A DNA stretch of 64,000 bases, taken from the IMG/VR virus record IMGVR_UViG_3300022752_000028; one strand, 5' to 3'. This DNA comes from an uncultured virus (IMG/VR IMGVR_UViG_3300022752_000028). Taxonomy: Duplodnaviria; Heunggongvirae; Uroviricota; Caudoviricetes. Position 1 is the stretch's first letter, and each line of letters begins with the position of its first letter. The position numbers and the translations under genes are program-made. The notes under the pieces were generated by a model. That model saw nothing but the letters and a program-made list of their open reading frames with translations. It was not told the origin of the DNA and did not search any database. This document shows positions 1 through 27,935 of this stretch, one piece after another.

Positions 1-129
1 GGGTCACGGATACATCGAGATCCTCTGCAACGACGGTACGCTCAAGACGGTCTTCTACGACGCTGTGGAAGCCGTCGAACCCGTGCAACAGAACGCAGCT
101 GTGGTATGATGGAGGGGCAAGGAGGCACA

Positions 130-405
130 ATGAGCCGGTTCCAAGCGGGTGAGCGAATTCTGGAAATCAAGGAGGAAATCATCGACCTTGTCCAGGAGGC
201 GATGGACCTCATGCGGTACGAGGGCACGGACACTGAGCGTGAGCGCGCTCGGGGCTACTGGTACGCCCACATCCGCACGGCCCTGGATGAGGACAGCGGA
301 TTCATGGGTCGGTCGATGTGCACGATGGAGGACTCCGCCCGTGAGCTGATGGCCGAAGAGGAGGATGAGGCGGAGGATGAGCTCCTCGATGAGGACGCCT
401 TCTAA
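130..405 (+). CDS. hypothetical protein with acidic C-terminus
   Basis: Element at 80, AAGGAGG, ATG 130. Confidence 0.8.
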   Translation: MSRFQAGERILEIKEEIIDLVQEAMDLMRYEGTDTERERARGYWYAHIRTALDEDSGFMGRSMCTMEDSARELMAEEEDEAEDELLDEDAF

Positions 406-435
406 ACCCGTGCGGGCAATCCAGACTGTGGTATA

Positions 436-460
436 GTGGCGTTGTGGTCACAACGACCAC
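436..460. repeat. Palindromic insert GTGGCGTTGTG-GT-CACAACGACCAC inside the -10 region (copy 1 of 3; others 1045-1069 and 22951-22972)
   Basis: Identical at 436 and 1045; 3 nt shorter at 22951; flanked by ATA on both sides. Confidence 0.9.
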
Positions 461-490
461 CATACTAACCAAGCCAACAAGGAGGGCACA

Positions 491-994
491 ATGAGCACGG
501 AACGCAAGAACTACTGGAAGATGTACCAGATCGTCAAGGGCAGCAATCTCGATGGGAGCGAATGCCGCGACCCTGACACTGTTCCACTTGAGGCATACCC
601 GGACACGCCCACGTTCAAGGCGGGCGACGTCGTCAAGCTCGATAAGGTGGCAATGCGCAAGTTCTCCGACGACGGGCGTGCGTCCGAGGGCAACTACGGC
701 TCGCGCTTCCTCACGCCCGAGGACCGGCTCCAGTATTGGAACGATCTCACCTCGTGGCATCGGAACGAAGCCAATGGCTCAACTGCCACGCTCGAGCAGC
801 TCCTGCACATGGCAGTGAACACGGTCGCGTACATAGGCGTGCACTGCAAGTTCGCTGACCGCTACACCGTGGTCGTGCCTGATTGCACGTACCTGGGCGA
901 CTGCTCCACGCCCCGTTGGGAATACTGCGAGGTGCGGAACAACAGCACGGGCGAGCAGTTCGTGATTGAACGCTGCTTCCTTACGCTGGCCTAA
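491..994 (+). CDS. hypothetical protein
   Basis: Element at 407, AAGGAGG, 167 aa ORF. Confidence 0.8.
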   Translation: MSTERKNYWKMYQIVKGSNLDGSECRDPDTVPLEAYPDTPTFKAGDVVKLDKVAMRKFSDDGRASEGNYGSRFLTPEDRLQYWNDLTSWHRNEANGSTATLEQLLHMAVNTVAYIGVHCKFADRYTVVVPDCTYLGDCSTPRWEYCEVRNNSTGEQFVIERCFLTLA

Positions 995-1100
995 CCAAAG
1001 CCCGGGTGTAGGGGTCCCGTGCGGCCCCTGCACCTTGTGGTATAGTGGCGTTGTGGTCACAACGACCACCATACTGACCCAACCAACAGGGGAGGCCAAG

Positions 1101-1712
1101 ATGGCGAAGAAGGCGGCTGAGATCATCAACGGTTACAAGGTGCCCGGAGGTCGCGGAGGTGCTGCCGTGGCGAAGGCCTGCCAGCTGATCATCAAGCATC
1201 CGGGCATCAAGCAGGGGGATCTCCTGGCGGCTGTGACCCGGTGGTCGTATCTGAACCACTCCACGGCAAGCTGGATCACGTCTCCGGGCTCGAAGTCACC
1301 GGCGGGGCTCCTCTGGTCCCGACAGAAGGTGGGGCGGTCGTTCGGATGCTTTCCCAATGAGCACACCCACCTCCTCGGAGATCCGCGGATCCGTCTCCGT
1401 GAGCAAGTCCTCAAGGACTTCAGCGTTGACTGGAAGGCGGCAGGTTCTCCCGTCCCAGGTGACCTCATCAGTTACTTCCGGCCCCGATGGGATGAGAACT
1501 CTACTCAGGAAGTGGAGATGGGGCTGATGACCGGGTTCGTCAAGACGTTCTATAACGGTGCCACCTACAAGGATGAACTTCTCTCCAGCTTGGATGGCCT
1601 GGACGACCTGGACAACTTCACGGATGGCAGCTTCTGGATCACTCCGCAGCTCAGCCTTGAAGGTCGGCTTCAGGCCATTCCCATCCACACGATCCGTAAG
1701 GAGGCAGCATGA
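1101..1712 (+). CDS. hypothetical protein
   Basis: Element at 1016, GGAGG, ATG 1101. Confidence 0.8.
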   Translation: MAKKAAEIINGYKVPGGRGGAAVAKACQLIIKHPGIKQGDLLAAVTRWSYLNHSTASWITSPGSKSPAGLLWSRQKVGRSFGCFPNEHTHLLGDPRIRLREQVLKDFSVDWKAAGSPVPGDLISYFRPRWDENSTQEVEMGLMTGFVKTFYNGATYKDELLSSLDGLDDLDNFTDGSFWITPQLSLEGRLQAIPIHTIRKEAA

Positions 1713-1993
1713 AAAACCCACATCGTCCGTCGTCCCTCACCGTCATGGGCGTGGCGGACATCATCCTGGGCCCGATCGCAGCGGAGAAGGGCTTCGAGAT
1801 CGGCTTCAATCCCGTCCCCTCCGGCGATGCACTCCTCGAGGTCGACTGGCCGGACACTCACGTCCTCACGGACGAGGAGCTGACGACCTTCAGCAAGGCG
1901 GCGAGCAAGATGCTGGGGGTGAAGGTGGAGCTCCAGAAGATCCTCGGTGGCTACGACATCGTGCCCGTGCGGGAGGCCACACCCGTGGTATGA
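1709..1993 (+). CDS. hypothetical protein
   Basis: AAGGAGG and ATGA overlap with the upstream gene. Confidence 0.75.
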   Translation: MKNPHRPSSLTVMGVADIILGPIAAEKGFEIGFNPVPSGDALLEVDWPDTHVLTDEELTTFSKAASKMLGVKVELQKILGGYDIVPVREATPVV

Positions 1994-2013
1994 TAGGGTC
2001 ACGGAGGTGATCG

Positions 2014-2358
2014 ATGATCAAGGTCTGTCGTCACTGTGAGGATGAGTTCGAGACCACGTCGCGGGCGAAGCAGATCGCCGGTGGCAAGATCGATGAGTGT
2101 CCTGACTGCTCTGAGGAATCGGGCGAGGTCTACGTCGGTCTGACTGCTGGTGACGGAAAGGTGGGCGAGTGCACGATCATGGCCTTCAAGGACCCGAAGG
2201 CTGCGTCCCAGTACGTCAGCAACTGGCAACGGTCGACCGGGTACCACCGTGGTAAGTCCTGCCAGCTGGGTGGGACGACCTCGTTGGACATGTCCTACAC
2301 GGGTGCGCGGATGGTGGGACAGTTCGGTGGGAACGGGAACCACAAGGGCAAGGCGTAA
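2014..2358 (+). CDS. hypothetical protein with CxxC..CxxC zinc ribbon
   Basis: CRHC and CPDC motifs; GGAGGT RBS. Confidence 0.75.
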   Translation: MIKVCRHCEDEFETTSRAKQIAGGKIDECPDCSEESGEVYVGLTAGDGKVGECTIMAFKDPKAASQYVSNWQRSTGYHRGKSCQLGGTTSLDMSYTGARMVGQFGGNGNHKGKA

Positions 2359-2409
2359 GTCCCGTGCGGGCAGCCTAGATTGTGGTATACTAACAGCGTG
2401 GAGGCAACG

Positions 2410-3711
2410 ATGGCTAACAAGACGACTGATACGGGCATTCCTGGCTACAACACTGCGACGGACGCGGAGGTCGAGGCCTTCAGCCTGGATGCCTACTGCA
2501 TCCGGCTCCTCCTGACGGAGCCCTTCTTCGCGGAGGTCATGCGGAACATCACCAAGATCCGGGACGAGAAGATCTCCACGGCGGGTGTCACCTCCCGCGA
2601 CGGAGACCTCTACCTCTACTGGAACCCGAAGTTCTGTGCCTCCATGCCCGGTATGGAGATGATCGGGCTGCTGAAGCATGAGTGCTACCACCTCATCTTC
2701 CAGCACTGCACCACCCGTCGGATGGAGCCCCACAACGTCCACAACATGGCCACGGACCTCGCCATCAACAGCATCATCCCCTACGATGAGCTTCCCAAGT
2801 GCGGCCTCATTCCCGGCCATGCCCTGAGCTACGGACACGTCACGGACCCGGAGCAGCTCGCTCGACTCAAGAAGCTGTCCGACATCATCCAGAACGCCCC
2901 GGTCGGCAAGTCGGCTGACTGGTACTTCAGCTACCTCCTGGAAGAGATGCCGGAGCTGGCTGACGGTGGTGACGGCGAAGGGGAAGGCGGCATCGGTATG
3001 GATGAGCACGAGGGCTGGGGTGAGATGTCTGACGAGGAGCGGGCAGTCATCAACGGCAAGGTCAAGGAGGCGGTCGGACGGGCGGTCAAGCAGTGCGATC
3101 GGAACGGCCAGTGGGGTTCCGTCTCTGCGGAGATGCGTGAGACCCTCCGGAAGATGGTCGAGGATTCGGTCGACTGGAAGCGAGTTCTCCAGAACTTCGT
3201 CGGAACCTCGCAGCGACTGAACAAGTCCTCCACCCTCCGCAAGCTGAACCGGAAGTACCCCTACATCCACCCCGGTGTTCAGCGGAGCCACACGGCACAT
3301 GTCCTGGTCGCGGTGGATATGTCTGGCTCGGTTGGCGACTCCGACCTCGAGCGGATCTATGCAGTCCTCGGAGGAATGGCCAAGCGGGTATCCTTCACGT
3401 TCCTTCCGTTCGACTACACTGTGGACGAAGCGAACATGTTCGAGTGGAAGAAGGGGCAGAAGAAGCCGCCTGTCCGCTTCCGTTCCGGCGGAACCTCCTT
3501 CATTGCGGTCAATGAGTTCGTCAAGAAGCACCGCTCCGAGTATGACGGAGTCATCATCTGCACGGACGGTGAGGCGGAGGACCCCGGTCCCAGTCCGATC
3601 AAGCGGGCCTGGCTCCTTGTCCCGGACACGAAGCTCCTCTTCAATGCCCACAACGGAGACATCGTCGTCAAGATGGACAAGGATCCGAACAAGAAGGCCC
3701 AGGCGGCTTGA
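2410..3711 (+). CDS. DUF2201-type protein: N-terminal putative metallopeptidase (HExxH) plus C-terminal VWA-like domain
   Basis: LKHECYHL, NMATDLAIN, VAVDMSGS (MIDAS), GGTSF, IICTDG. Confidence 0.85.
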   Translation: MANKTTDTGIPGYNTATDAEVEAFSLDAYCIRLLLTEPFFAEVMRNITKIRDEKISTAGVTSRDGDLYLYWNPKFCASMPGMEMIGLLKHECYHLIFQHCTTRRMEPHNVHNMATDLAINSIIPYDELPKCGLIPGHALSYGHVTDPEQLARLKKLSDIIQNAPVGKSADWYFSYLLEEMPELADGGDGEGEGGIGMDEHEGWGEMSDEERAVINGKVKEAVGRAVKQCDRNGQWGSVSAEMRETLRKMVEDSVDWKRVLQNFVGTSQRLNKSSTLRKLNRKYPYIHPGVQRSHTAHVLVAVDMSGSVGDSDLERIYAVLGGMAKRVSFTFLPFDYTVDEANMFEWKKGQKKPPVRFRSGGTSFIAVNEFVKKHRSEYDGVIICTDGEAEDPGPSPIKRAWLLVPDTKLLFNAHNGDIVVKMDKDPNKKAQAA

Positions 3712-3737
3712 ACCGCCTGGGCCCCTTGGGTATCAAC

Positions 3738-3977
3738 TCACTTGGCAGTTGATGTGTTGGTTGTGGCTGGGGCCACTGTGGCGTCGGTTGTCGCGGGTGC
3801 GGCAGCGGCGTCAGCAGCGGGGGTCTCAGTCGCAACAGGTGCTGCAGCAGCGGGTGCTGGGGCAGCCTCGACGGCAGGTGCTGGCTCGGCGGCGGGAGCG
3901 GTCTCCTCAGCCTTGTCAGCGCAGCCGGCGAGCAGTGCAGTGGCGAGAATGGCCGCTGCTGTCTGGATGCGTGTCAT
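3738..3977 (-). CDS. Ala/Pro/Thr-rich lipoprotein
   Basis: MTRIQTAAAILATALLAG-C lipobox; AAGGAGG RBS on minus strand. Confidence 0.8.
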   Translation of the reverse strand: MTRIQTAAAILATALLAGCADKAEETAPAAEPAPAVEAAPAPAAAAPVATETPAADAAAAPATTDATVAPATTNTSTAK

Positions 3978-4078
3978 GTTGTCCTCCTTCTGCAGTAAGT
4001 ATACTGAGCTCGAGGGAGGTTTATCGGTCCCGTGCGACAAAAGCGGGATGTGGTATGATGGAGGCATAAGGAGATAGG

Positions 4079-4375
4079 ATGTACACTCTGGTTCAGGAAG
4101 GTTTCAAGCCGCTCGCTGAGGTTGAGATGCAGCGCGTCGTCGACGCCGTTGACGGTTTCCTCAGTGCGGGGGATCAAGTCCGATTTGAGTCGCTGGCGGA
4201 CGACGTCATCACTCACGCCCTCAGGCCAGGCTGGCTGTCGATCTGCTCTCGAGTCCCCACCCGGCTGGAGATCATGTCCGCCTGCTGCCTCCTCGAGGGG
4301 CAGGGTCGACTCCGCTTCGACTTCATCGAGGGCCTCATGCACGTGGCGTCGGTCCCGTGCGGGCGCAGCGAGTAG
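4079..4375 (+). CDS. hypothetical protein
   Basis: Element at 4029, AAGGAG RBS. Confidence 0.7.
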   Translation: MYTLVQEGFKPLAEVEMQRVVDAVDGFLSAGDQVRFESLADDVITHALRPGWLSICSRVPTRLEIMSACCLLEGQGRLRFDFIEGLMHVASVPCGRSE

Positions 4376-4397
4376 TGGTAGAATAACAACACATTAA

Positions 4398-4441
4398 GAC
4401 CCTCATCAACCTGCTACGTGATATGTAGTAGATGAGGTGTC
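4398..4441 (+). promoter_or_regulatory. RBS-sequestering hairpin with putative late promoter GATATGTA at its loop
   Basis: 4398-4419 pairs with 4423-4441 and covers SD GAGGTG 4434-4439. Confidence 0.7.
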
Positions 4442-4443
4442 AA

Positions 4444-5043
4444 ATGCAAAGATTCTTCTTCATCTACAAGACGACGAACATCAAGACGGGGCAATACTAC
4501 ATTGGAAAGCACGTCACCAACAAGCTTGATGATGGCTATATCGGTAGCGGAACTAAGCTAAGATCGGCAATCAGAAAGCATGGGAAAGACTGCTTCAAAT
4601 TTGAGATTGTGACATTCTGTCATTCCAATGAGGAGCTTAATCTTCTTGAAGAACAGATTGTTACACAACAAATAGTTGATGATCCTTTGTCCTACAATCT
4701 GAAGATTGGCGGGCATGGTGGGTGGGATCACTGCCCATCAAAGGGAAGAAAGCTCTCAGAAGAGACACGAAGAAAGATGTCTGAGTCTCGCGCGGGCAAA
4801 CCCAGAGCAAAGCGAGGCCCAATGTCTGAAGAAGACAAGCAGTGGCGTTCTTTAGCACTAAAGGGACGTAGGAATCCAAAAGCTGCTGAACAGCTTAGAG
4901 AGTATTGGGACAGGATCAAATCTGATCCCGATGCTTTGGCAGAACTTAAAGAGCAGAGATCACGCCAGCAGAAAGACAGATTTGATTCTGATGAGTTCCG
5001 TGCTAAGCACTCAGCCGGTGTCGCTCGATCAAAGAAGACGTGA
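4444..5043 (+). CDS. GIY-YIG homing endonuclease with NUMOD3-like repeats
   Basis: FIYKTTN..YYIG, YIGSG, YNLKIGG, LSEETRRKMSES; AT-rich island in a GC-rich region. Confidence 0.9.
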   Translation: MQRFFFIYKTTNIKTGQYYIGKHVTNKLDDGYIGSGTKLRSAIRKHGKDCFKFEIVTFCHSNEELNLLEEQIVTQQIVDDPLSYNLKIGGHGGWDHCPSKGRKLSEETRRKMSESRAGKPRAKRGPMSEEDKQWRSLALKGRRNPKAAEQLREYWDRIKSDPDALAELKEQRSRQQKDRFDSDEFRAKHSAGVARSKKT

Positions 5044-5115
5044 CCCGTGCAGGCGGTGCAAACCGTGGTACAATAGACAGGTAACCAACCAAGACAACCA
5101 GCCAAGGAGTTCAAA

Positions 5116-6171
5116 GTGGACATTCGCACCGCCATCAACACGATCCCCGTTCTTCCCGCTGACATCTCGATCATGGTCCGTGGCCCCCACGGCATCGGCA
5201 AGTCCCAGATCTTCGCTCAGATCGCGGAGCGGCTCGGCCTCGAGCTGATCGACCGCCGTCTCAGCCAGATGACGGAAGGCGACCTCCTCGGCCTCCCGGA
5301 GCTCGTGGACGGTGTCACCCGGTTCTGTCCGCCGGACTGGTACATGTCTGCCTGCAAGGCTCCGAAGGTGGTCCTCCTGGACGAGTTCAACCGCGGAACT
5401 CCCGAGGTGCTGAACACGGCCATGCAGATCACCCTGGACCGTGAGCTCAACGGATGGAAGCTCCACCCGGAGACCCGCATCTACGCTGCGGTCAATGCCT
5501 CTGCTGAGTACTCGGTCAACGAGCTCGACCCGGCACAGGCCGACCGGTTCTGGACGATCGACCTCGAGCCTTCCAATGAGGACTGGCTCAACTGGGCAAG
5601 CTCCTCCGGCGTCGACTCGGTCATCATCGACTTCATCCGTCAGCACCCCGGTGAGCTCCGTCACAAGGGTCAGATGGAGCCCGGACGGGTCTACCCCTCT
5701 CAGCGGTCCTGGGATCGACTCGATCGCTCCCTGAAGGCGGCGCGGATGGCTCCGGCTGACGTGGCTGGCAACATCCCGGACGGGTTCTACCCGGTGTGCC
5801 TCGGATTTGTCGGGGTCGAGTCCGCCCTCAAGCTCCGCGACTTCGTCAAGAACTACGACTCGGTCATCTCGGCGGAGGACCTCCTCAAGAACTGGAAGAA
5901 GCTCAAGGGCAAGGTGCTGAAGCTCAACGCTGACAAGCAGAATGCCCTCCTGGAGAAGCTCCTCGACCACTGCAAGGGGAATACCTGGTCGGTGGACGAT
6001 GCGAAGGTCATCCAGGAACTCCTCGAGGGGATCTCCGGTGAGATGATGGTCAGCTTCTTCAACAAGGTGATGGAGACCAACCAGGTTGGCAACATCCGCA
6101 CGCTCCACAAGCTGATTGGCCCCACCCTGGTCAAGGCCATCAGCAACTCGGACGTGACCAAGAAGAAGTGA
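5116..6171 (+). CDS. MoxR/dynein-related AAA+ ATPase (AAA_5-like), likely partner of the DUF2201/VWA protein
   Basis: Walker A GPHGIGKS, Walker B VLLDEFNR, LDPAQADRF, SQRSW; GTG start with AAGGAG. Confidence 0.88.
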   Translation: MDIRTAINTIPVLPADISIMVRGPHGIGKSQIFAQIAERLGLELIDRRLSQMTEGDLLGLPELVDGVTRFCPPDWYMSACKAPKVVLLDEFNRGTPEVLNTAMQITLDRELNGWKLHPETRIYAAVNASAEYSVNELDPAQADRFWTIDLEPSNEDWLNWASSSGVDSVIIDFIRQHPGELRHKGQMEPGRVYPSQRSWDRLDRSLKAARMAPADVAGNIPDGFYPVCLGFVGVESALKLRDFVKNYDSVISAEDLLKNWKKLKGKVLKLNADKQNALLEKLLDHCKGNTWSVDDAKVIQELLEGISGEMMVSFFNKVMETNQVGNIRTLHKLIGPTLVKAISNSDVTKKK

Positions 6172-6400
6172 GGTTCCTGTGGAAGCTGCTGTCCGCCCCG
6201 CTCCGGCAGCTCCACTCCTTGGTTGGCAGGGCGCTCGAGGCCCAGAGCGGGGCACCTTCCCTTCAAGCGGTTCCCACAATTCACACGGAGCCACCTCAGA
6301 AGCTGACGGTGACTTCTGTGTGGGTTGCTTGGTAGGTAACCCATCTCGCGCAATAAAAGCGAACACAGAGCAACTGGCAGCTGTTTAACACGGGGCTGGC
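6172..6400 (+). ncRNA. Candidate structured RNA (pseudoknot plus multibranch stem), function unknown
   Basis: Stem 6179-6191/6204-6215; its loop 6195-6203 is complementary to 6245-6253; stem 6301-6321/6363-6382 encloses two hairpins. Confidence 0.45.
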
Positions 6401-6419
6401 TACATTGTACAATGATTGC

Positions 6420-6665
6420 ATGCGTTTATGCCAGCTCTACATCGTCACCGCCACAGGCTACTACACTGCCATCCAGGGTGCTCGGCCCGTCCAAGACCTT
6501 GAATTGCTTCATAGATTGATCCCCTACGTCGAGGCGCTGCGCCCAGGACGGGGTCGGTACTACGACCTGCACGTCGCGCACCTCACCGAGGACTGGATCC
6601 CGGACGACCTGTCGCACATAGCGATGGTCAAGCTGCAAGAGAAGTTGAAGGCTCAGCTCCCCTGA
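6420..6665 (+). CDS. hypothetical protein
   Basis: ORF ends immediately before the element at 6666. Confidence 0.55.
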   Translation: MRLCQLYIVTATGYYTAIQGARPVQDLELLHRLIPYVEALRPGRGRYYDLHVAHLTEDWIPDDLSHIAMVKLQEKLKAQLP

Positions 6666-6702
6666 CCCGTGCGCATCCCACGCACAGAGGTAGAATGAGA
6701 CC

Positions 6703-7068
6703 ATGCGACGCTCCAACAAACTCAAGGTTCCTCCCGCGGTCCGACAGGCCGCTCGTCAGGTCGCCAAGCAGGAGGGCATCAAGGGCCTGGGGAAACCCAA
6801 GCTCCAGATGACCGACGGGGTGGCGGCTGCCAAGATGCGCGAGCAGTTCCGCGAGCAGAAGCGGACCAAGTGGCGCTGGCAGGAGGGGGACATGGTCCGC
6901 TTCCGGGACATCCACCTGGGTGAGACCCTGATGGGCATGGTGATCTCAGTGGACGAAGCCTACGAGGCACTGACGGTGACCTGCCCGGTCGGCATCCGTG
7001 TGATCGGATGCAAGGCAGCGAAGCTGGTCGATCGACTCGACGACCCGTGCGAAGACCCGAGTGAGTGA
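6703..7068 (+). CDS. hypothetical protein (KOW/SH3-like GDxV motif), probably leaderless
   Basis: ATG 6 nt after TAGAAT, no SD. Confidence 0.7.
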   Translation: MRRSNKLKVPPAVRQAARQVAKQEGIKGLGKPKLQMTDGVAAAKMREQFREQKRTKWRWQEGDMVRFRDIHLGETLMGMVISVDEAYEALTVTCPVGIRVIGCKAAKLVDRLDDPCEDPSE

Positions 7069-7099
7069 TATACTAACCAAGCCAACCAAGGAGGCAATC

Positions 7100-7348
7100 A
7101 TGGCTCTCATCATCACCCGACCCACCCAGTCCACCACCTTCAACGACGGCACCGGTCGCAATGCGATCCTCCGGAACGACAGTGGCCAGCACTTCCTGGT
7201 CTCGGAGGTGCACCGCACCCCGGCTCCGGGTCACCGCATCGACGAGACCCTGGTCTTCCCCTGCACGGCGGAGGGAGATGTGACCGACTGGTGTGAGGTG
7301 TGGAGTGGCAATTCCGTCGAGGACGTCCTCAGCACCTTCAACGGCTGA
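7100..7348 (+). CDS. hypothetical protein
   Basis: Element at 7044, AAGGAGG. Confidence 0.75.
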   Translation: MALIITRPTQSTTFNDGTGRNAILRNDSGQHFLVSEVHRTPAPGHRIDETLVFPCTAEGDVTDWCEVWSGNSVEDVLSTFNG

Positions 7349-7360
7349 AAGGGAGGCATC

Positions 7361-7582
7361 ATGGCCGACACTACCGCACTCCTCGCCACGGCACTCGAGA
7401 ACGAGGGTGCGCTCCTGCTCAAGCTGATCAGTGAACTCCAGAATGAGGATCTCTTCGACTTTGCGCGGAGGATCGCTGAGCTGAACCCCAAAGCCGGGAG
7501 CAGTTCAACTGATGAGATCCTCTATGTTGCGCACAATATCAAGAACATCGAGGCTGCGCTGGAGAACTTCTACGCTGTCTGA
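7361..7582 (+). CDS. hypothetical protein
   Basis: GGAGG RBS. Confidence 0.7.
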   Translation: MADTTALLATALENEGALLLKLISELQNEDLFDFARRIAELNPKAGSSSTDEILYVAHNIKNIEAALENFYAV

Positions 7583-7633
7583 CCCGTGCGCTGCACCCAA
7601 CCTGTGGTAGAATAACGAGGCAAGGAGGATAGA

Positions 7634-7978: not shown

Positions 7979-8035
7979 CCCGTGCGGGTCGACCAAACAG
8001 TGGTAGAATAACCAAGCCAACCAAGGAGTTCAATC

Positions 8036-8782: not shown

Positions 8783-8837
8783 GGAGCCCGTGCGAGCGGG
8801 GTTCGATGTGGTACAATAAGCAGGTAAGGAGGTAACA

Positions 8838-19453: not shown

Positions 19454-19504
19454 CCCGTGCGGTCTCTCCGAGCTGTGGTATACTGGTCAGGCAAAGGAGG
19501 CAGA

Positions 19505-19762: not shown

Positions 19763-19814
19763 GTCCCGTGCGGGCAGTCTGACCTGTGGTATACTGATCT
19801 CACAAGGAGGACAG

Positions 19815-20258: not shown

Positions 20259-20310
20259 GACCCGTGCGGGCGATCCGAACCGTGGTATACTGACCCCACA
20301 AGGAGGCAAC

Positions 20311-20610
20311 ATGGCTCAGAAGACCTGGACCCGGACCGAGATCGAGACCCTCATCAACACCAACGACCGCGCTGTGGAGCGGGCCATGGTGGCGATCTGG
20401 GAGCGGCAGACCCGTGACGAGCAGGCCACCGAGACGACCCGCCACCACAACGGCATCGGGTTCTCGGGCTGGACCGCCAAGTCGGGCACCTACTTCGCCA
20501 ACTGGGTCCGCTCCGGTCGGTCGCTCTCGGGCAAGCACCTGGCGAAGGCCCGCAAGATCGCCCTCCACCACGCGGGGCAGCTCACGCGGATCGCGAACGG
20601 CGAGGGCTGA
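20311..20610 (+). CDS. hypothetical protein (RQTxDEQ..NGIGF type)
   Basis: Element at 20261, AAGGAGG. Confidence 0.8.
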   Translation: MAQKTWTRTEIETLINTNDRAVERAMVAIWERQTRDEQATETTRHHNGIGFSGWTAKSGTYFANWVRSGRSLSGKHLAKARKIALHHAGQLTRIANGEG

Positions 20611-20667
20611 TCGACCCGTGCAGGTGGTCTACACCGCGGTATACTGAACACAGGAAGGAGGCAAGCA

Positions 20668-20838
20668 ATGACCGTTCAAGACCTGATCTCCCTGCTCCAG
20701 GACTTCCCGCCCGAGCTCCCGGTCCGGTTCTCTGCCGACATGGGATGCATCGAGACGAGCACGCCTCTCATCACGTTCAGCGAGACGGGGGATGAGCGGG
20801 GGCCGGAGCACGTCGTCCTCATCGACCTCGACGGCTGA
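20668..20838 (+). CDS. small protein, family C
   Basis: MTVQDLISLLQDFPPELPV; AAGGAGG. Confidence 0.7.
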   Translation: MTVQDLISLLQDFPPELPVRFSADMGCIETSTPLITFSETGDERGPEHVVLIDLDG

Positions 20839-20891
20839 GACCCGTGCGGGTCGTCCCAACTGTGGTATACTAACAGAGCAAGGAGGACAGA

Positions 20892-21098
20892 ATGCCCACC
20901 CGACTCAATCTCAAGACCGAGACCCTCGACGCCTTCGTGAACAACTTCCCGGGCTGGACCCTCACCACCTGGAAGGTGGCCCGCTTCGGGTGGCACTTCG
21001 AGGTGACCGGTCCGAAGGGCACCTGGAACGGTGGCGGGTTCTACAACGAGCGGGAGGCGAAGAGCGCCGGCCTCCAGTCGATCTACCGCGCGTCGTGA
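20892..21098 (+). CDS. hypothetical protein
   Basis: Element at 20841, AAGGAGG. Confidence 0.75.
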   Translation: MPTRLNLKTETLDAFVNNFPGWTLTTWKVARFGWHFEVTGPKGTWNGGGFYNEREAKSAGLQSIYRAS

Positions 21099-21152
21099 CC
21101 CGTGCAACGCGTCCCATCCGTGTTATACTGATCCCACAAGGAAGGAGACAAC

Positions 21153-21443
21153 ATGGCCCAGCTCACCCGTGACCAGCTCGAGACCCAGCAGGAGAACATC
21201 CACAACGCCCTCGTCGCGGCGAAGCGGGCGATCCGGACCCAGTTCGAGGCGGGGCTCGTGGGCCAGACGGTCCTCATCCAGCGGACCCTCAAGGACCCGA
21301 TCTCGGGGGACAAGCACGACGTGGAGATCGAGGCCACGATCACGGGGCTCCGCTGGACCTACGAGGATGAGATGGAGCTCAAGGTCACCTACACCCACCC
21401 CTTCACGGGGGAGGAGATCCTCGCCACCGCCCCGATGTTCTGA
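21153..21443 (+). CDS. hypothetical protein
   Basis: Element at 21099, AAGGAG. Confidence 0.75.
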   Translation: MAQLTRDQLETQQENIHNALVAAKRAIRTQFEAGLVGQTVLIQRTLKDPISGDKHDVEIEATITGLRWTYEDEMELKVTYTHPFTGEEILATAPMF

Positions 21444-21714
21444 CCCGTGTGGGCGATCCGAACTGTGGTATACTGAGCAGGTAAGGAGGACAGATGAACA
21501 CCGAGCTTCGTAACCAGAGCACGCTCGACCTTCAGGAACTCGCGCAGGGGAAGGGGACGATCGCCCAGTGCGCGCGACGCATCCTCGAGGAGCGGGAGGC
21601 GGCGTCCCAGCGTCTGGCCCAGATCTGTCGTGAGGTCGCTCGAGAGCGTCGGGCCTGAGGCCCGTGCGGGTCGTCCCATCTGTGGTATACTAACAGCACA
21701 AGGAGGAGGTTCTC

Positions 21715-22038
21715 ATGGCACACTTCGACACGTCCCTGGTTCTCGAGGCGATCACCAACGAGGTCCTCGCCGACCACGAGACCAACCGCCAGATCATCGA
21801 GCTCATCGAGGACACCCGCGACACGGAGCGCGGGGCCGAGGGCGACCGCCAGCAGCTCGTCTGGGGGGTCCTCGAGCTGGCCCTCCGGCAGATGGCCAAG
21901 AGCCAGCACGGCCACGACCTCGTGGTGGGCTTGATCGACCAGCTCATGGAGGAGGCCCGCCAGGAGTCGCTCCAGCAGATCCGGTTCATGGCGATGGGGC
22001 TCACCCGCGAGGAGCTGGACGCCGGGTGTCCCATCTGA
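21715..22038 (+). CDS. hypothetical protein
   Basis: Element at 21661, AAGGAGG. Confidence 0.75.
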   Translation: MAHFDTSLVLEAITNEVLADHETNRQIIELIEDTRDTERGAEGDRQQLVWGVLELALRQMAKSQHGHDLVVGLIDQLMEEARQESLQQIRFMAMGLTREELDAGCPI

Positions 22039-22085
22039 CCCGTGTAGGTGGCCGGGATGGTGGTATACTGAACGCAGGAGGACAG

Positions 22086-22304
22086 ATGACCCAGCAAGAT
22101 CTCAACTTCACCCAGGACAACGCCAACCGCGAGATGGTGGCGATCTCGGTGGAGATGGACCGTCTCCTCGCGCGGATGGCGCAGCTCGGCCAGCACCAGC
22201 ACGCCTGGCGCCGGGGTGCGGCCACGAACTTCCTGTGGGAGGCCCACGAGCGTCTCAAGGACGCGCGGACCAACCTCGAGATGTCCTTGGGGCTCAATCG
22301 GTAG
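22086..22304 (+). CDS. hypothetical protein
   Basis: Element at 22039, AGGAGG. Confidence 0.7.
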   Translation: MTQQDLNFTQDNANREMVAISVEMDRLLARMAQLGQHQHAWRRGAATNFLWEAHERLKDARTNLEMSLGLNR

Positions 22305-22358
22305 GTCCCGTGCGTACCCTCCGACCTGTGGTATACTGAGACCAGGAGGTAAGGAACC

Positions 22359-22562
22359 ATGCGAACCTGTCAGATGTGTGGTGATGAGTTCAATCCCCGT
22401 GGTATGATTCGAGGAGCTCAGTGGGCGAACCGGTGTAACATGTGTCAGGAGGTCGACCACGAGGTCGAGACCATCCAGGCTCAGACCGAGCGAATCATCA
22501 ACGGTCAGGGAGCTGAACGAGCGAAGGCTGCCCTGGCTCGAATCCGGACCGGGAAGCTCTGA
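22359..22562 (+). CDS. small CxxC..CxxC protein
   Basis: CQMC..CNMC. Confidence 0.7.
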   Translation: MRTCQMCGDEFNPRGMIRGAQWANRCNMCQEVDHEVETIQAQTERIINGQGAERAKAALARIRTGKL

Positions 22563-22615
22563 GTTCCCGTGCGGGCAATCCGAACTGTGGTATGATATCC
22601 AAGCAAGGAGGAACC

Positions 22616-22918
22616 ATGAGCAACATCGACTTCACCCCCACCGCCTACACCGTCACCACCCCCGGCAGTGGTAAGCCCGGACGGTACGAGGGCGAGAACT
22701 GGAAGTACGCCATCGAGGGTGCCAAGAAGGAGTTCGCCCGGCTCACCGAGGCCTACCCCAACCTCGCCCGGTTCGTGGTCCCTGACCACTTCGTCCAGGA
22801 GTACTGCCGGGACTACGACCGGAACCTCTGGGGAGGAGGTCGTGGCTTCGGGGTCCACGGTGACCGTCCCTTCTTCGAGCTGGCTGAGAAGGGGCTGGCT
22901 GAGGCGAAGTTCAACTGA
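22616..22918 (+). CDS. hypothetical protein
   Basis: Element at 22566, AAGGAGG. Confidence 0.75.
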   Translation: MSNIDFTPTAYTVTTPGSGKPGRYEGENWKYAIEGAKKEFARLTEAYPNLARFVVPDHFVQEYCRDYDRNLWGGGRGFGVHGDRPFFELAEKGLAEAKFN

Positions 22919-22997
22919 GTTCCCGTGCGTGTTCTACCAACCGTGGTATAGTGGCGTTGTTACAACGACCACCATACTAACCAGGCAAGGAGGACAA

Positions 22998-23225
22998 ATG
23001 GACAAGAACCAGACGGTCAACGGACGGTACACGACCTTCAACCTCGGCTCGACCACCCTCACCCCTCGGCTTCAGGAGGCCCTTCAGGTCCTGGATCGAT
23101 CCTGCCGGTTTGGGTCCGGTGGGGAATGGGACATCGAGCGGATCCCGGGTGGCTGGTCCGCGACCCCCGATGGACCTTTCGATACGGTTTACTGGAATGG
23201 AAAGAAGGGGACCTGGAAGGAGTAA
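22998..23225 (+). CDS. paralog family B protein
   Basis: Similar to 13044. Confidence 0.78.
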   Translation: MDKNQTVNGRYTTFNLGSTTLTPRLQEALQVLDRSCRFGSGGEWDIERIPGGWSATPDGPFDTVYWNGKKGTWKE

Positions 23226-23277
23226 GTCCCGTGCGGATGGTCTGACCTGTGGTATACTGACCCAGCAAGGAGGAAAG

Positions 23278-23442
23278 ATGGAGACCAAGATGGACAAGGC
23301 TCTCGATACGATCTTCAACTGGGGACATGGCTTTGGCGGCCTCCTCTTCATGATGCTGGTGGCTGCCCCCATCCTCGGTGTCCTGATCGTGGGGTTCATC
23401 CAGGTGATGGTCCTCGGGTTCGAGGTGGTCGGTCTGGTCTGA
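23278..23442 (+). CDS. small membrane protein
   Basis: Long hydrophobic stretch; element at 23228. Confidence 0.7.
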   Translation: METKMDKALDTIFNWGHGFGGLLFMMLVAAPILGVLIVGFIQVMVLGFEVVGLV

Positions 23443-23501
23443 CCGACCCGTGCGATCGATCCGAACTGTGGTATACTAACCAGGCCAACCAAGGAGAACC
23501 A

Positions 23502-23660
23502 ATGATCGCTCTCATCCTCACCTTCATCACCCAGCTCAACATCACCTCCACCCCGGTCGCCCAGGTCGAGGTGGCCGAGGCTGAGGTCGAGGCGGTGTTC
23601 GTTCCGGCCGGTCACGAGGGGCCCATCGTTGCGGTCCCCTTCGATGAGGCGGCCTTCTAA
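23502..23660 (+). CDS. family D protein
   Basis: EVEAVFVPAGHEGPIVA. Confidence 0.7.
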   Translation: MIALILTFITQLNITSTPVAQVEVAEAEVEAVFVPAGHEGPIVAVPFDEAAF

Positions 23661-23886
23661 AGGTCCCGTGCGCAGCAATCCAACAGTGGTAGAATAACAA
23701 GGTAAGGAGGTCAAATGGTCAACTTCACTCTCATCGCTTCGGTCTTCTACATCGCGCTCGGTTCCGGCATCATGGGCTTCGCCCTGGGACACGCCCAGCT
23801 CGCCTGGCTCGAGGGGCAGGACAAGCTCTGATCCCGTGCGCAGCAATCTGACCGTGGTATACTAACTAAGCAAGGAGGAAGGAAAC

Positions 23887-24231
23887 ATGGCGAAGGACAT
23901 CAAGGTGACTGAGGTGGTGGTTGTGGACGGCAAGCCGGTGGTCCGTGGGACGGTCGGTGAGGTCCCCTTCGAGGCAGCCACCAAGCAGTGGGGCAGCAAG
24001 ATGCTCATGAATGTGGCCGCGGAGGGGCTGGATCGCGGCACGCGGATTGCCATCGGTCATGCGGCCAAGCGGGCAGTCAAGGCGGCCCAGATGGTCCTCC
24101 CGGAGGCGGTCCTCAAGCGGCCCCGGAAGGCGAAGGCCGAGGAGGCGGTGGTCGAGGCGGCTCCTGCGGTTGAGGCGGTTGAGGGTGGGGTTGAGCTGGA
24201 GAGCCTCGACGCGGCACTGGAGGCGGTGTGA
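23887..24231 (+). CDS. paralog family A protein (copy 3)
   Basis: QWGSKMLM..DRGTRIAIGHAAKRA..LPEAVLKRPRK. Confidence 0.88.
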   Translation: MAKDIKVTEVVVVDGKPVVRGTVGEVPFEAATKQWGSKMLMNVAAEGLDRGTRIAIGHAAKRAVKAAQMVLPEAVLKRPRKAKAEEAVVEAAPAVEAVEGGVELESLDAALEAV

Positions 24232-24376
24232 CCGACGACATCGATCCGAAGGACATGCAGACCGATGAGCAGCCCAGGGCCAGGGACCCGCCCGGTTGGT
24301 TCAGCAACTGGACCCTGCAGGACACGCTTCTTCTCGCACTTCTCTACGCGCTCCCCTTCATCATCAGAGGCTGCAC

Positions 24377-24577
24377 ATGACCCATCCCGCTGACCTCAAC
24401 CCCGACCTCGTCCAGGAGATCTACTGGCTCGCCGAGTTCCCGGACGCGGTGCTCGAGATCTCTCCCACTGACCTCTTCTCCCTTCAGGCCCGCCTCCAGG
24501 ACATGGATGATCCTGATCTGACCCCGCTGTACGACACGGTGACAGCCCTGACCTCGTCCCTGAAGCGCTTCCCGTAG
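24377..24577 (+). CDS. hypothetical protein
   Basis: GAGG RBS. Confidence 0.55.
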   Translation: MTHPADLNPDLVQEIYWLAEFPDAVLEISPTDLFSLQARLQDMDDPDLTPLYDTVTALTSSLKRFP

Positions 24578-24681
24578 AGACACGATGCACCGGTTGCTTC
24601 TGGATTGGTTTTTATGCGTGAGATGTGGTGTAACATGGTTTGCTCATTCTGGTTCAACCGGTAGCAACAGGGGAGGCTTCT

Positions 24682-25230
24682 GTGATTAATGGCGAGCTCC
24701 ACGAGGGGGATCTGGTCCGGGTCACTCAGGTGCACCGGTCCACTGCGGTGCGTCTCCCGAAGAAGGGCACAAAGAAGGGACCGGCGGCGCGGGCGAGAAG
24801 CGTCACACGGCGCTCCCCCGAGCTGGGCACCGAGATCCAGCAGTGGCTGGGCCTCGTCATCCGTGTGGGCATCGAGTCAGCCGTCGTCCGGCGTGCCGTG
24901 GTGGGGGAGACACCGGAGGAGTGGTCGATCCCGACCGGCAACTACTGGTCAGACAGCGTCGAGCACTTCAGCATGATGGAGCGCGTCGACCCGAAGACGC
25001 TGCTGCCCTACGTCTCAGCCAAGAACCCGACGGTGCGCAAGGGGGATCTCGTGGAGCTGATGGTGGACGACGAGTGGCGCAGCGGGGTCGTCACCAAGAC
25101 GCTGAGCCGTGAAGTCTGTCTCGTGCTCGTCGACGGCCAGTTGGCCCGGTGCCTGAAGTCGCGGCTCATGATCGTCTCCCGTGCGACCCGGACGAGAAGT
25201 GGTAAGATGACTGAGAAGGAGGAAGAATGA
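24682..25230 (+). CDS. hypothetical protein with two GDLV (KOW/SH3-like) units
   Basis: EGDLVRV and KGDLVEL; GGAGG, GTG start. Confidence 0.7.
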   Translation: MINGELHEGDLVRVTQVHRSTAVRLPKKGTKKGPAARARSVTRRSPELGTEIQQWLGLVIRVGIESAVVRRAVVGETPEEWSIPTGNYWSDSVEHFSMMERVDPKTLLPYVSAKNPTVRKGDLVELMVDDEWRSGVVTKTLSREVCLVLVDGQLARCLKSRLMIVSRATRTRSGKMTEKEEE

Positions 25231-25366
25231 ACCGACCCCGCCCCACTCTCTACGACCTCTACACCTACGCCTACCTGGTCATCCGTGAGCACCGGGAGAC
25301 GATCGCTGAGGTGACCACCCTCATCTTCGCCGCCATCGTCTTCATCCTGTTCCTCGTGGTGATCTG

Positions 25367-25687
25367 ATGCTCGTTCGACAGAGCACCCTCGACCCGACCG
25401 TGACGGTGATCGAGGTGGAGACGGGTGATGTGGGTCCGATGGTCGACCTCCTCGAGACGCGGGGTCACGGCTTCACGGTGCTGGGGATCGAGCAGCGGAT
25501 GGTGGTCGTCGACGGTCGGCTCCGTGCCCGTCTCAGTCGGCACCATCTGCTGGCCATCGAAGCACACGAGATCTCTCACATTCACTTCCCAGATGCAGAT
25601 GAGACAGAAACAGATCGAGCAGCAATCAGGCTCCTGACAGCCATGAAGCAGCCCATGGCTGCCCGTCTCCTTCGTGCGCGGCTCTGA
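25367..25687 (+). CDS. small HExxH metallopeptidase-like protein
   Basis: AHEISH..E. Confidence 0.6.
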   Translation: MLVRQSTLDPTVTVIEVETGDVGPMVDLLETRGHGFTVLGIEQRMVVVDGRLRARLSRHHLLAIEAHEISHIHFPDADETETDRAAIRLLTAMKQPMAARLLRARL

Positions 25688-25783
25688 GATAGTGGTATAC
25701 TAGAGAAGCAGGAGGTAACATGGCACTTCTCATCTTCATCGTGATCCTCTCCCCCGTCCTCATCACCATCGGCTGGATGTTCG

Positions 25784-26062
25784 ATGGAGAAGGGTAGCCT
25801 CGCCGCCATCTTGGGTGACACTGTGATCTACACCCGGCCGGTTGACATCAACGACCAGCGGGGAGCGATCCAGCACCATGCTGGCTTCGTCAGGAAGGGC
25901 GAACGCTGCCTGGTTCTCAGCGCGCGCGATGACTGGAAGGCGACGCGCGACCTGGGCTTAAGCGGCCCGTGGACGCAGATCCTCCTCCGTGGTAAGGTCG
26001 TCTGGGTGAAGCGCTACTACGTCGGACCTCTCGTGCAGACCGAAGACAGTGTGGTATACTGA
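25784..26062 (+). CDS. hypothetical protein (SH3-like)
   Basis: ORF reads into the element at 26030. Confidence 0.6.
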   Translation: MEKGSLAAILGDTVIYTRPVDINDQRGAIQHHAGFVRKGERCLVLSARDDWKATRDLGLSGPWTQILLRGKVVWVKRYYVGPLVQTEDSVVY

Positions 26063-26276
26063 TCTCAGGAAGGAGGAAAGATGCAAACGGACTTCGTCGC
26101 TCTGATCACGATCCACGGTGAGTTCCTCGGTGACGTCAGCCGGACCGAGCTCGAGGCCTACCTGGAGGCGAACGGTCTGAAGCTGGTCGACCACCAGTAC
26201 GGGGATGTCGCCGTGGTCATGTAGATCCCGTGTGGGTCTTCCCGTCTGTGGTATACTAACCAAGCAAGGAGGCACA

Positions 26277-26549
26277 ATGTTCAACTTCATCGACCGCAAC
26301 CTCTCTCTCATCTTCGGCGTGATCCTCTTCGCTCTCCCGGTCGGGGCGATCTGCATGGCGGCGTGCAGTGGGCCCTCGACCCCCGAGGAGAAGGTGGTCT
26401 ACGACGCGTCCTACACCGATCGGGCCAAGGAGGACATGGTCGTGCTCTCCCCCCGACCCGGGGTGGAGTGCTACATCCTTCGGGGTCGTCACAGCGTCGA
26501 GCCACGCGTCATGTCCTGTGTCGTCCTGCCCGTGACGACGGGCCAGTGA
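26277..26549 (+). CDS. putative membrane/lipoprotein
   Basis: Hydrophobic N-terminus, MAAC. Confidence 0.7.
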   Translation: MFNFIDRNLSLIFGVILFALPVGAICMAACSGPSTPEEKVVYDASYTDRAKEDMVVLSPRPGVECYILRGRHSVEPRVMSCVVLPVTTGQ

Positions 26550-26585
26550 CGCAGTAGAATAGACACAGGAACGGAGGAGACAACG

Positions 26586-26906
26586 ATGGACTGCATGAAC
26601 AAGAAGCCGACCCGACTCGACAACACGGTGGGGCTCATCCTCGGGTTGGTCCCCGTGGTGGGCTTCGCAGCCATGGTGGGCTGCACCGACAACCAGCGGA
26701 CGAAGGCCTTCGGCGGCACCATGACGGTGCAGATCCCCTGTGACCAGCAGGTGTTCGACGTCACCTGGAAGGGCGAGGACCTGTGGTACGCCACTCAGCC
26801 CGCACCCAGTGACTGGAAGCCGGCGCAGAAGCGCTTCACCGAGTACTCGTCCTACGGGATGATCCAGGGAGAGGTGGTCCTGAACGAGAGCCGGTGTGCC
26901 TCCTAA
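26586..26906 (+). CDS. putative phage lipoprotein
   Basis: VG-CT..FGGT..VTWK..LWY pattern. Confidence 0.75.
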   Translation: MDCMNKKPTRLDNTVGLILGLVPVVGFAAMVGCTDNQRTKAFGGTMTVQIPCDQQVFDVTWKGEDLWYATQPAPSDWKPAQKRFTEYSSYGMIQGEVVLNESRCAS

Positions 26907-27165
26907 AAGCGGTGGACCGCTGCGAATCAACCCGGGCGATCTCGTGACGGATCGATTCGGACACGGTGTCATCCTGGTGCAGAACCTGTACATGCCAGGA
27001 GCCCGCGACACACGTCTGAAAGTAGGTGATGTGGCGCTGGTGACCTGGGTGGGCCGCGTCAAGGAGGCCCTCAGCGGTGTGAATCGGGATGTCTGTGACG
27101 TCCTGTTCAAGGGTGAGGTGTGGCGGACGAACACGATCAGCCTGCGGGTGGTGAAGGATGATTGA
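26896..27165 (+). CDS. SH3-like protein, tandem paralog 1
   Basis: GDLVTDR..VLFKGExW..LRVV shared with the next ORF. Confidence 0.7.
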   Translation: MPPKSGGPLRINPGDLVTDRFGHGVILVQNLYMPGARDTRLKVGDVALVTWVGRVKEALSGVNRDVCDVLFKGEVWRTNTISLRVVKDD

Positions 27166-27394
27166 GTCTAGAGACATCAAGGTGGGTGACCTGGTGACAG
27201 ACAGGACAGGGACAGGGGCACAGATATTCCAGCACTTGTTCACTCCCCAGCTGCGTCATGTCCGGCTGCGCGAAGGTGAGGTGGGCCTGGTGACTGGGAT
27301 GAAGGGCGGACGTGCCCAAGTCCTGTTCAAGGGTGAGATGTGGCAAGCGAATCCATCACTGCTACGGGTGGTGAGCGATGGCGAGAGAGGTTAA
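27158..27394 (+). CDS. SH3-like protein, tandem paralog 2
   Basis: Same motif as 26896. Confidence 0.7.
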   Translation: MIESRDIKVGDLVTDRTGTGAQIFQHLFTPQLRHVRLREGEVGLVTGMKGGRAQVLFKGEMWQANPSLLRVVSDGERG

Positions 27395-27608
27395 GTTGGT
27401 TAAGTCAGGACAGCTGAGACAGTGGCGCATGAACGCGACGCCTCACGGAGAAGAGACACCCGTCTTCCTGGTGCTAGATCCCTACTCGATCCCCATCCCC
27501 GGATCAGACTGGGCCGACAACGGCTGGTACATCCTCATCGACGGGAAGCAGGAGTGGGTGTGGGAGGGCGACATCGAGGACGACAGCGACGTGCTGGAGG
27601 ACGCGTAG
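27378..27608 (+). CDS. hypothetical protein
   Basis: Packed ORF. Confidence 0.6.
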   Translation: MAREVKLVKSGQLRQWRMNATPHGEETPVFLVLDPYSIPIPGSDWADNGWYILIDGKQEWVWEGDIEDDSDVLEDA

Positions 27609-27679
27609 CAGAGAGAGGCCGCTGACAGCGCGTGCGACAGAGTTGGGCTGTGGTATGATGATAGCACACAGGAGGCAGC

Positions 27680-27877
27680 ATGCTCTGGATCATCACCCTC
27701 GAATCCACCAACTCTCACGGTCACCACACCAAGTCCTGGCTCCTCGACGGCGGGGATCAGGCCCTGGTCGTGGAGGCGGAGGACCGCCTCGAGGCGATCG
27801 CCAAGGCAAAGGCCCGGCTGGACCAGCACACGCTGGAGCACAACGAGGTGGTTGTCCACTGCGTGACCCGGATGTAG
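27680..27877 (+). CDS. hypothetical protein
   Basis: Degenerate element at 27629, AGGAGG. Confidence 0.7.
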   Translation: MLWIITLESTNSHGHHTKSWLLDGGDQALVVEAEDRLEAIAKAKARLDQHTLEHNEVVVHCVTRM

Positions 27878-27935
27878 ATGCAGTCGGGCTCGTGCAGCAT
27901 CGTGTAGACGTGGTATGATAGTCACAGGAGGAAAC

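Follow-up and report, generated by a model that had tools for sequence, protein, structure and literature searches.

A one-strand array of 55 promoter-like cassettes with a probable clade-specific -35 box in an uncultured tailed phage

The T4-type phages RB49/phi1, T4/PST and KVP40/nt-1 carry promoter-early stem-loop (PeSL) cassettes, in which a promoter of the Escherichia coli sigma-70 consensus is preceded by an AT-rich part and combined with a stem-loop terminator, and for which mini-circles were shown (PMC2839356; PMC4122927). Here we compare them with an array in the record IMGVR_UViG_3300022752_000028, an uncultured tailed phage of the Caudoviricetes, of which a stretch of 64,000 nucleotides was analysed (hereafter the window). 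It holds 55 promoter-like elements at 80..27919, every one on the plus strand and each opened by a box of the CCCGTGC type. PeSLs resemble the array in number and setting (about 50 copies per genome, ahead of ORFans in hyperplastic regions; PMC2839356; PMC4122927), in packing a stop codon, a promoter, a Shine-Dalgarno sequence and a start codon into one short unit, and in crossovers that fall at varying positions inside the element, with gene loss or gain and a chimeric element as the outcome. The array departs from them in having GTGCRR at -35, in being preceded by the end of the previous gene, whose stop abuts the box, rather than by an AT-rich part, in showing hairpins in only 3 of 55 elements, as apparently mobile inserts, instead of a stem-loop terminator in each, and in lying entirely within one 28-kb block. 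In operation the array resembles PeSLs, although by definition it is not one of them.

Two other phage systems invite comparison. The host-takeover region of SPO1 is dense with small genes behind many strong promoters of the consensus sigma-A type. The array is likewise a dense block of small genes behind many putatively strong promoters, but its -35 is not the consensus and a takeover role for its genes is hypothetical. T4 middle promoters, which depend on MotA and AsiA, join a host-type -10 to a phage-specific upstream box. Here the likeness is one of form only: a host-type -10 is combined with a phage box that replaces the canonical -35, implying that region 4 function is replaced too, but the array's box occupies -35 itself and its candidate reader is a true homologue of sigma region 4.2 on a zinc scaffold. 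The MotA and AsiA families had no match among the 70 window proteins and the 93 of 384 proteins scanned from G007, a related complete record of 293 kb with direct terminal repeats (labels beginning with G denote related genome records, with L individual loci and with P members of the zinc-protein family). The best overall explanation, to which we give about an even chance, is a PeSL-like early array with a -35 element of the clade's own and a possible phage-supplied reader.

The first-pass annotation had described some 55 co-oriented CCCGTGC cassettes with a near-constant 13-nt spacer and none past 28 kb, and a weight-matrix and exact search of the window agrees: the first element begins at 80, the last finishes at 27919, and the weight-matrix scan of both strands returned zero elements on the minus strand and zero beyond 28 kb. 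The layout over 80..27919 (plus strand) is the box CCCGTGC, 13 nt, NGTGG, TAnnnT, an AC-rich leader and GGAGG, with a gene behind each element; the spacer from the box to the NGTGG-TAnnnT block measures 13 nt in 54 of 55 and 14 nt in one. The boxes start, all on the plus strand, at 80, 407, 1016, 1964, 2361, 4029, 4354, 5044, 6666, 7044, 7583, 7979, 8787 and 10904; at 11982, 12255, 12662, 12989, 13312, 13560, 13906, 14180, 14535, 14744, 15190, 15493, 15941 and 16271; at 17007, 17336, 17557, 17756, 18024, 19454, 19765, 20261, 20615, 20841, 21099, 21444, 21661 and 22039; and at 22307, 22566, 22922, 23228, 23447, 23665, 23833, 25178, 25671, 26030, 26227, 27629 and 27889. The stretch 11982-23833 holds 35 of the 55, and in relatives the array starts a few cassettes to the left of the window's edge. 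Exact CCCGTGC occurs 51 times on the plus strand and twice on the minus strand; 46 of the plus-strand copies have the 13-nt spacer and a TAnnnT -10, one has a 14-nt spacer (14744), and four are intragenic copies with no -10 (8250, 12572, 18346 and 19147). The box is therefore exact in 47 of the 55 elements, the other eight having one- or two-base variants: CTCGTGC (10904, 26030, 27889), CCCGTGT (21444, 22039, 26227), TTCGTGC (25671) and CGCGTGC (27629). A strict element pattern matched 36 times in the window and never in any of 100 shuffles.

The promoter anatomy with an extended -10 that had been proposed also stands, with TG at -15/-14 in 51 of 54 elements and, in 54 of 55, a short AC-rich leader followed by a GGAG or GAGG site and an open reading frame (ORF). 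The stop of the preceding gene lies 0-4 nt ahead of the box in 32 of 53 consecutive element pairs, so that the intergenic space is mostly the element itself, and a stop triplet stands directly before 38 of 52 boxes, against 12% of random positions. On this anatomy, each element is very probably a strong sigma-70-type promoter joined to a leader and a ribosome-binding site. The 13-nt spacers are alike beyond chance (16 element pairs agree at 11 or more of 13 positions; column shuffles gave a mean of 0.7 and a maximum of 5), as would be expected from copying or conversion. No hairpin common to the window's elements was found (median z -0.13, with 3 of 55 below -2), and an Rfam scan of the window gave zero matches. 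A 29-nt hairpin is inserted into the -10/leader of elements 407 (427-466) and 1016 (1036-1075), and a 26-nt form into element 22922 (22942-22978), at about -17 to -18.5 kcal/mol; stem variants occur in relatives (L009, L042), and the insert may be present or absent at one and the same gene between relatives. These inserts look like tiny mobile palindromes that target the element. A second hairpin, of 22 nt, lies within the ribosome-binding site in L009, L022, L024, L043 and L131.

Relative to the -10, the box can be written as CGTGCR with a 17-nt spacer or GTGCRR with a 16-nt spacer. GTGCRR is present in all 54 elements with the 13-nt spacer and TTGAC near 1 of 54, in line with the earlier remark that CCCGTGC sits at the -35 position yet is not TTGACA. 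An independent array is found in another phage, G014: 32 sites, all on one strand and sharing the window's box and spacing, lie in an island of 57-64% GC, and about nine cassette proteins of G014 are shared with the window at 33-61% identity. In more distant relatives this promoter class again precedes the DUF2201 and AAA genes, but the hexamers and spacings differ: GTGTAA or TTGTAA in G003 (spacing 17 in 21 of 22, TG in 1 of 22), GTGCAA in G008 (spacing 18 in 7 of 10) and CTGTAA in G007 (spacing 19 in 13 of 23). The class was counted in 22 of 138 upstream regions in G003, 23 of 173 in G007 and 10 of 217 in G008, against 1, 3 and 4 in reversed controls, and TTGAC promoters numbered 1-2 in each of the three, not above their reversed controls (1-2). 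In the sister records G024-G027, by contrast, TTGAC promoters number 8-14 per record (controls 0-1) and box-class promoters 0-2, and some of these TTGAC promoters precede the same genes that follow box promoters elsewhere. Given this contrast ahead of the same genes, the box is best read as a clade-specific -35, and we think it quite likely that it is this phage clade's own -35 element. A TGGTAKAAT probe revealed no promoter class in 9 of 10 further records. In the open-access literature, supplements aside, no description was found of the box, of the phage group or of a sigma split inside region 4.

An altered sigma region 4 had been named as a possible reader of the box, and the window offers a candidate. 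Divergent from phoH, at 44647..44868 on the minus strand, lies a gene for a 73-aa protein of zinc-binding type with four invariant cysteines, in which region 4.2 of sigma-70, a helix-turn-helix, stands alone. Against DVTRERIRQIE in a cellular RpoD, its helix has VTRMRICQIE; the two residues that differ presumably correspond to E585 and R588 of E. coli sigma-70, the residues that control position -33. The profile match to region 4 has a probability of 98.9 and the structure model a pLDDT of 90.6; a fold search gave no match at E 0.001 or better, region-4 structures ranking top at E 1-5, and no match was found among deposited phages. The family comprises 85 close homologues, 238 stretches in viral contigs and 157 cluster representatives at E 1e-10, and its helix variants include canonical ones. 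A TGTACA-type motif, related to the box, stands upstream of the zinc gene in 37 of 69 loci, compared with 6.5% of control windows. We regard the 73-aa protein as a plausible candidate reader of the box. The canonical TRER(I/V)RQ helix was seen in P0274, P0284, P0287, P0314, P0322, P0326 and P0351, and other helix types in the family are TRMRICQ, SFVRIKQ and TPSRIKQ. Two ideas were tried and rejected: the minus-strand CCCGTGC at 44954 as an autoregulatory site, since it lies within phoH codons and is not kept in L262, and a general pairing of the TRMRICQ helix with CGTGCR-17 arrays, which only G014 among 21 records displayed.

Relatives of the window also encode a phage sigma that is cut short. 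Sigma-70 region 2 was found in 9 of 21 clade records, and all nine proteins end soon after an RLRFG motif, without region 4.2; in nine records the truncated sigma and the zinc gene occur together. A wider search of 77 loci gave 58 truncated and 16 full sigmas, three loci being dropped (one mis-picked frame, one cut and one divergent full sigma). The truncated forms make up a single branch (support 99/85) and were absent from all seven sister records, four of them confirmed by profile. They are RpoD-like, spanning regions 1.2-4.1. In Pfam terms the two proteins are complementary, the window's zinc protein matching positions 19-49 of the 50 of Sigma70_r4 and the sigma of G011 only positions 1-18. 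SigO-RsoA of Bacillus subtilis is a working two-subunit sigma that is split between sigma-4 and sigma-2 (PMC8103513). The phage pair is like it in placing complementary sigma parts on separate polypeptides, but the phage break falls inside region 4, between 4.1 and 4.2, the genes are far apart, and joint action is a proposal. The pair also recalls T4 gp55/gp33, a sigma without 4.2 with a small partner, and the clade has a -10-only motif as well; the differences are that the phage sigma is RpoD-like, not gp55-like, and that the small protein keeps an invariant recognition helix. The parts seen of a jumbo-phage survey mention AsiA and gp33 and describe minimal and RpoD-like phage sigmas, with no sigma lacking 4.2 (PMC7824862).

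How such proteins might serve the array can be outlined only tentatively. In the model that we rate somewhat below an even chance, RNA polymerase with the host primary sigma would start first from the extended -10; the phage would then contribute a region 4.2 of its own, carried by a separate zinc-anchored protein (44647-44868) that partners either the phage sigma without 4.2 or the host sigma, and -35 recognition would move from TTGACA to the GTGY box, so that phage genes stay on and host TTGACA promoters lose out. A stronger version appears doubtful to us, though worth stating: a large aquatic jumbo-phage clade may have cut sigma-70 between 4.1 and 4.2, with the zinc-anchored 4.2, its recognition helix altered, re-docking on the truncated phage sigma or the host holoenzyme and giving a private GTGYRR -35 with a spacer of 16-19 nt that is fixed for each phage. 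The array would then be both the regulon and a set of recombination joints through which new genes could arrive already wired to the 4.2 module. A complex prediction for residues 100-243 of the G011 sigma with the window's zinc protein, a cross-genome pair, passed weakly, at 0.35 against 0.02 for the best control, with 77% contact agreement and a partner pLDDT of 65. Of 157 solved pairs, 116 attained the mark used, as did 2 of 215 mismatched pairs; among these, only 18 solved pairs and both mismatches scored 0.60 or less. A pass at 0.35 is more often wrong than right unless the pair is likely beforehand.

Several observations weigh against a phage-supplied reader of this kind. For the genome that contains the window, a search that reached only those 64 kb revealed no truncated sigma. 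In 35 of 35 aligned sequences the truncated sigma lacks the extended -10 glutamate, which we take to be E458, while TG is retained in 51 of 54 promoters of the window. The gene for the truncated sigma stands behind a box promoter in 36 of 51 loci (a count made without a control), and as the zinc gene too often has a related motif upstream, the first transcripts would have to come from host polymerase at these promoters or from a virion protein; the complete G007 has no TTGAC promoters above control to start such a cascade. The complex score may reflect the likeness of the domain halves to solved sigma-4 structures. Sister phages keep a homologous zinc protein, with the SFVRIKQ helix, and use plain TTGAC promoters, so the family need not read an early -35, and a single helix, TRMRICQ, goes with several boxes and spacings (16 in the window and G014, 17 in G003, 18 in G008 and 19 in G007). 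The clade has, moreover, a second motif: ATAnnTA, with no -35 partner, lies 10-40 nt upstream of many core genes (window 28569-50632; 36616 on the minus strand) and exceeds its frequency in shuffles 2-4-fold in G003, G007, G008 and G011; G024-G027 show no such enrichment and have TATTTA as their preferred form. It is a probable late promoter, and it could be an equally good target for a sigma without 4.2. Finally, the match between box class and phage factors amounts to one clade-level contrast, which a difference in host lineage could explain equally well.

That last point leads to the strongest competing reading, which we consider improbable, if only a little more so than the split of sigma inside region 4: the host primary sigma itself would prefer a GTGY -35, and the truncated sigma and zinc protein would serve the late ATAnnTA promoters, as T4 gp55 works with gp33 on late promoters. 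It draws on several of the same facts. The orthologous early genes behind TTGAC in sister phages point to an early, host-read class; G007 has no canonical promoter to bootstrap a phage factor, and the truncated sigma's own gene follows a box promoter; the extended -10 TG suits a sigma with an intact region 3.0; and ATAnnTA is confined to the clade. Against it, scans that had no positive control found no cellular lineage with a GTGY -35. Neither 124 genomes from the phylum of G033 nor 6 from that of G031 exceeded their reversed controls, and the 11 and 19 stretches returned by two exact scans of all species genomes were scattered single occurrences, a phage contig being the one exception. Chloroflexota use the same TGTGGTAKAMT extended -10, with no common -35 across the 42 listed sites; as a host group (7 of 19 stretches) they were rejected, the matches reducing to four independent cases, with four matches being one orthologous promoter, and reflecting the extended -10 only. 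The spacing, near-fixed within each phage and ranging from 16 to 19 between phages, suits a geometry set by the phage. One bacterial genome bin, G002, contains contigs of this phage group (C294, C552 and C699), possibly through a host link or through mis-binning; it encodes a canonical RpoD and showed no promoters of this type outside those three contigs. The SpoVR relatives were uninformative as to the host.

Less probable again, and in our view unlikely, is a reading of the box by some other factor of the phage that acts as a class II activator, like MotA in T4; this would be either a helix-turn-helix protein whose gene follows that of the truncated sigma or a virion protein. A gene for a 90-100-aa protein with a helix-turn-helix-like core directly follows the truncated sigma and is conserved there, with 46 distinct sequences in 52 loci (for example L513:3735-4019); G011 encodes it together with the truncated sigma and the zinc protein. 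Delivery in the virion would solve the bootstrap problem. On the other side, that protein has no Pfam family and no significant similarity to region 4 (profile probability 0.4), a fold search with it returned nothing above Z 5, a fused sigma form was not found among longer proteins (two matches, neither a sigma), and the protein was not seen in the window or in the metagenome loci.

Whatever reads them, the elements mark where genes come and go. A metagenome scan found the element in at least 171 stretches, one of which, the 266-kb contig behind L026 and L062, matches much of the array at about 97% identity, and 154 overlapping loci contain 955 element sites, none on the opposite strand. Cassette order is mostly collinear between relatives, with many gains and losses and few relocations, which indicates gain and loss more than shuffling; the shuffling proposed at first thus holds for whole-gene gain and loss at elements, whereas reordering is rare. 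Compared with 16 loci, the array shows 30 clean gene-sized indels, 25 of them with both ends inside elements, which is how repeats acting as PeSL-like recombination joints had been expected to behave. Altogether 52 of 60 indel ends lie inside elements, which make up 14.7% of the region, although the events are in part dependent on one another, and the elements themselves stand at gene junctions. Chimeric elements were checked in 49 events, of which 24 passed the quality filter. The cleanest crossovers are mutually exclusive, at -2..+7, +9..+10, +21 and +36..+39 from the first base of the box, with others up to +48; no single site fits them, which argues for homology-driven exchange. The cassette at 13312..13559 (plus strand) is missing from L045, where the chimeric element places the crossover at +36..+41, and that at 15190..15492 (plus) is missing from L026, with a crossover at +36..+39 and agreement at 40 of 40 diagnostic bases. 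The cassette at 22307..22565 (plus) has been relocated: in L009, L022, L041 and L045 it lies elsewhere, either directly ahead of the 19454 cassette or between that cassette and the one at 18024. Pooled over loci, 473 distinct cassette-first proteins fall into 115 families, 67 of them absent from the window, with a median length of 78 aa.

Recombination among copies very likely deletes and inserts whole promoter-gene units and leaves chimeric elements behind, as in the PeSLs of T4-type phages; the roughly 50 nt common to all copies would let ordinary homologous recombination gain or lose such units. A limit to this reading comes from the element-free 28.3-36.3 kb, where comparison with L062 gives 5 events in 8 kb, against about 16 in 26 kb in the array; two of the five end in long overlaps, and the genes of this stretch have repeated starts in common. 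With turnover of similar density where there are no elements, the elements set the positions of breaks but need not raise their rate. Contigs from four sequencing runs have joints at several elements, some going back, which paralogues could explain. The notion of an integron-like library fails, since the array lacks an attC hairpin per cassette and a fixed crossover point and each cassette has its own promoter-like element; the array is not an integron. That the element is the site of a dedicated recombinase, as might be suggested by a box abutting the upstream stop codon in most cassettes and by units that move whole, with few relocated, is very improbable given crossovers spread from -2 to +48, the absence of a common hairpin (median z -0.13), the lack of a tyrosine integrase in all five related records searched, one of them complete (serine recombinases were not searched), and the UvsX-like recombinase, exonucleases and Holliday junction resolvase encoded by the complete relative G007.

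The window looks like part of a freshwater jumbo phage, with the array as its early, hyperplastic region. Its content is of the jumbo-phage type (PrkA-YeaH-SpoVR, PhoH, an ADP-ribosyltransferase, sugar-modifying enzymes, tail-fibre-like genes and homing endonucleases), and the public runs that match it best are freshwater metagenomes. Besides the recombination genes, the 93 of 384 ORFs scanned in G007 encode a terminase, tail tube and baseplate. A search of a phage collection with the window DNA gave no match, nor did the exact 18-base element pattern in viral contigs. Positions 1..32000 form a GC-rich island (56-65% GC, against 34-52% beyond 32 kb), and third-position GC is 0.72-0.98 in 15 array genes against 0.24-0.64 in 10 core genes, suggesting a GC-rich host. 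Only 4 of the 48 cassette proteins scanned have a Pfam match at E 0.01, each weak; with almost no array protein in a known family, the idea of a library of host-takeover or anti-defence genes is not borne out.

Among the few recognizable array genes, all on the plus strand, are a DUF2201 metallopeptidase/VWA gene (2410..3711), whose sister-phage orthologues stand behind TTGAC promoters, and a MoxR-like AAA ATPase gene (5116..6171), whose orthologues follow CTGTAA (G007), GTGCAA (G008), GTGTAA (G003) and TTGAC (G025, G027) promoters. A GIY-YIG homing endonuclease cassette (4354..5043) is missing from close relatives, with both ends in elements. A RecA-fold ATPase cassette (8036..8782) has matches to KaiC, helicases and UvsX-like proteins. 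Three cassettes are paralogous (12314..12655, 18079-18486 and 23887-24231), and the relative G014 likewise has three copies; an HNH endonuclease insertion within a gene (18400..19138) is an indel with its ends away from elements. To the right of the array lies the element-free stretch of paralogous genes (28300..36300, plus), with its 5 indels or replacements relative to L062; it contains a run of paralogues at 29331-33603 with the N-terminal motif MRIT..RQIIREE, whose repeated starts lie near these indels, and an ART-PolyVal ADP-ribosyltransferase gene (32384-33094) that the closest relative lacks. A YeaH-SpoVR-PrkA operon occupies 36799-41235, the nearest PrkA in deposited phages (Thermus phages and huge phages) being only about 33% identical. 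Glycosyltransferase, epimerase, aminotransferase and FdtA-like genes fill 54064-63878 at 34-43% GC, a block that extends in G001.

A promoter-cassette array with homologous turnover is of a known kind; the -35 code is the new part. Cassette turnover extends evolution of the PeSL type to an unrelated, uncultured group of jumbo phages; crossovers are mapped at base level in natural populations, and the pool of small proteins comprises at least 115 families. A whole phage clade appears to have left TTGACA for a -35 of the GTGY type, and it carries a sigma without 4.2 together with a free region 4.2. If the truncated sigma and the zinc protein act together, they would represent a new sigma architecture and an easily tested route to orthogonal promoters. 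If instead the host reads the box, there would be a bacterial lineage with an undescribed -35 preference, and the box would be a handle for finding that host.

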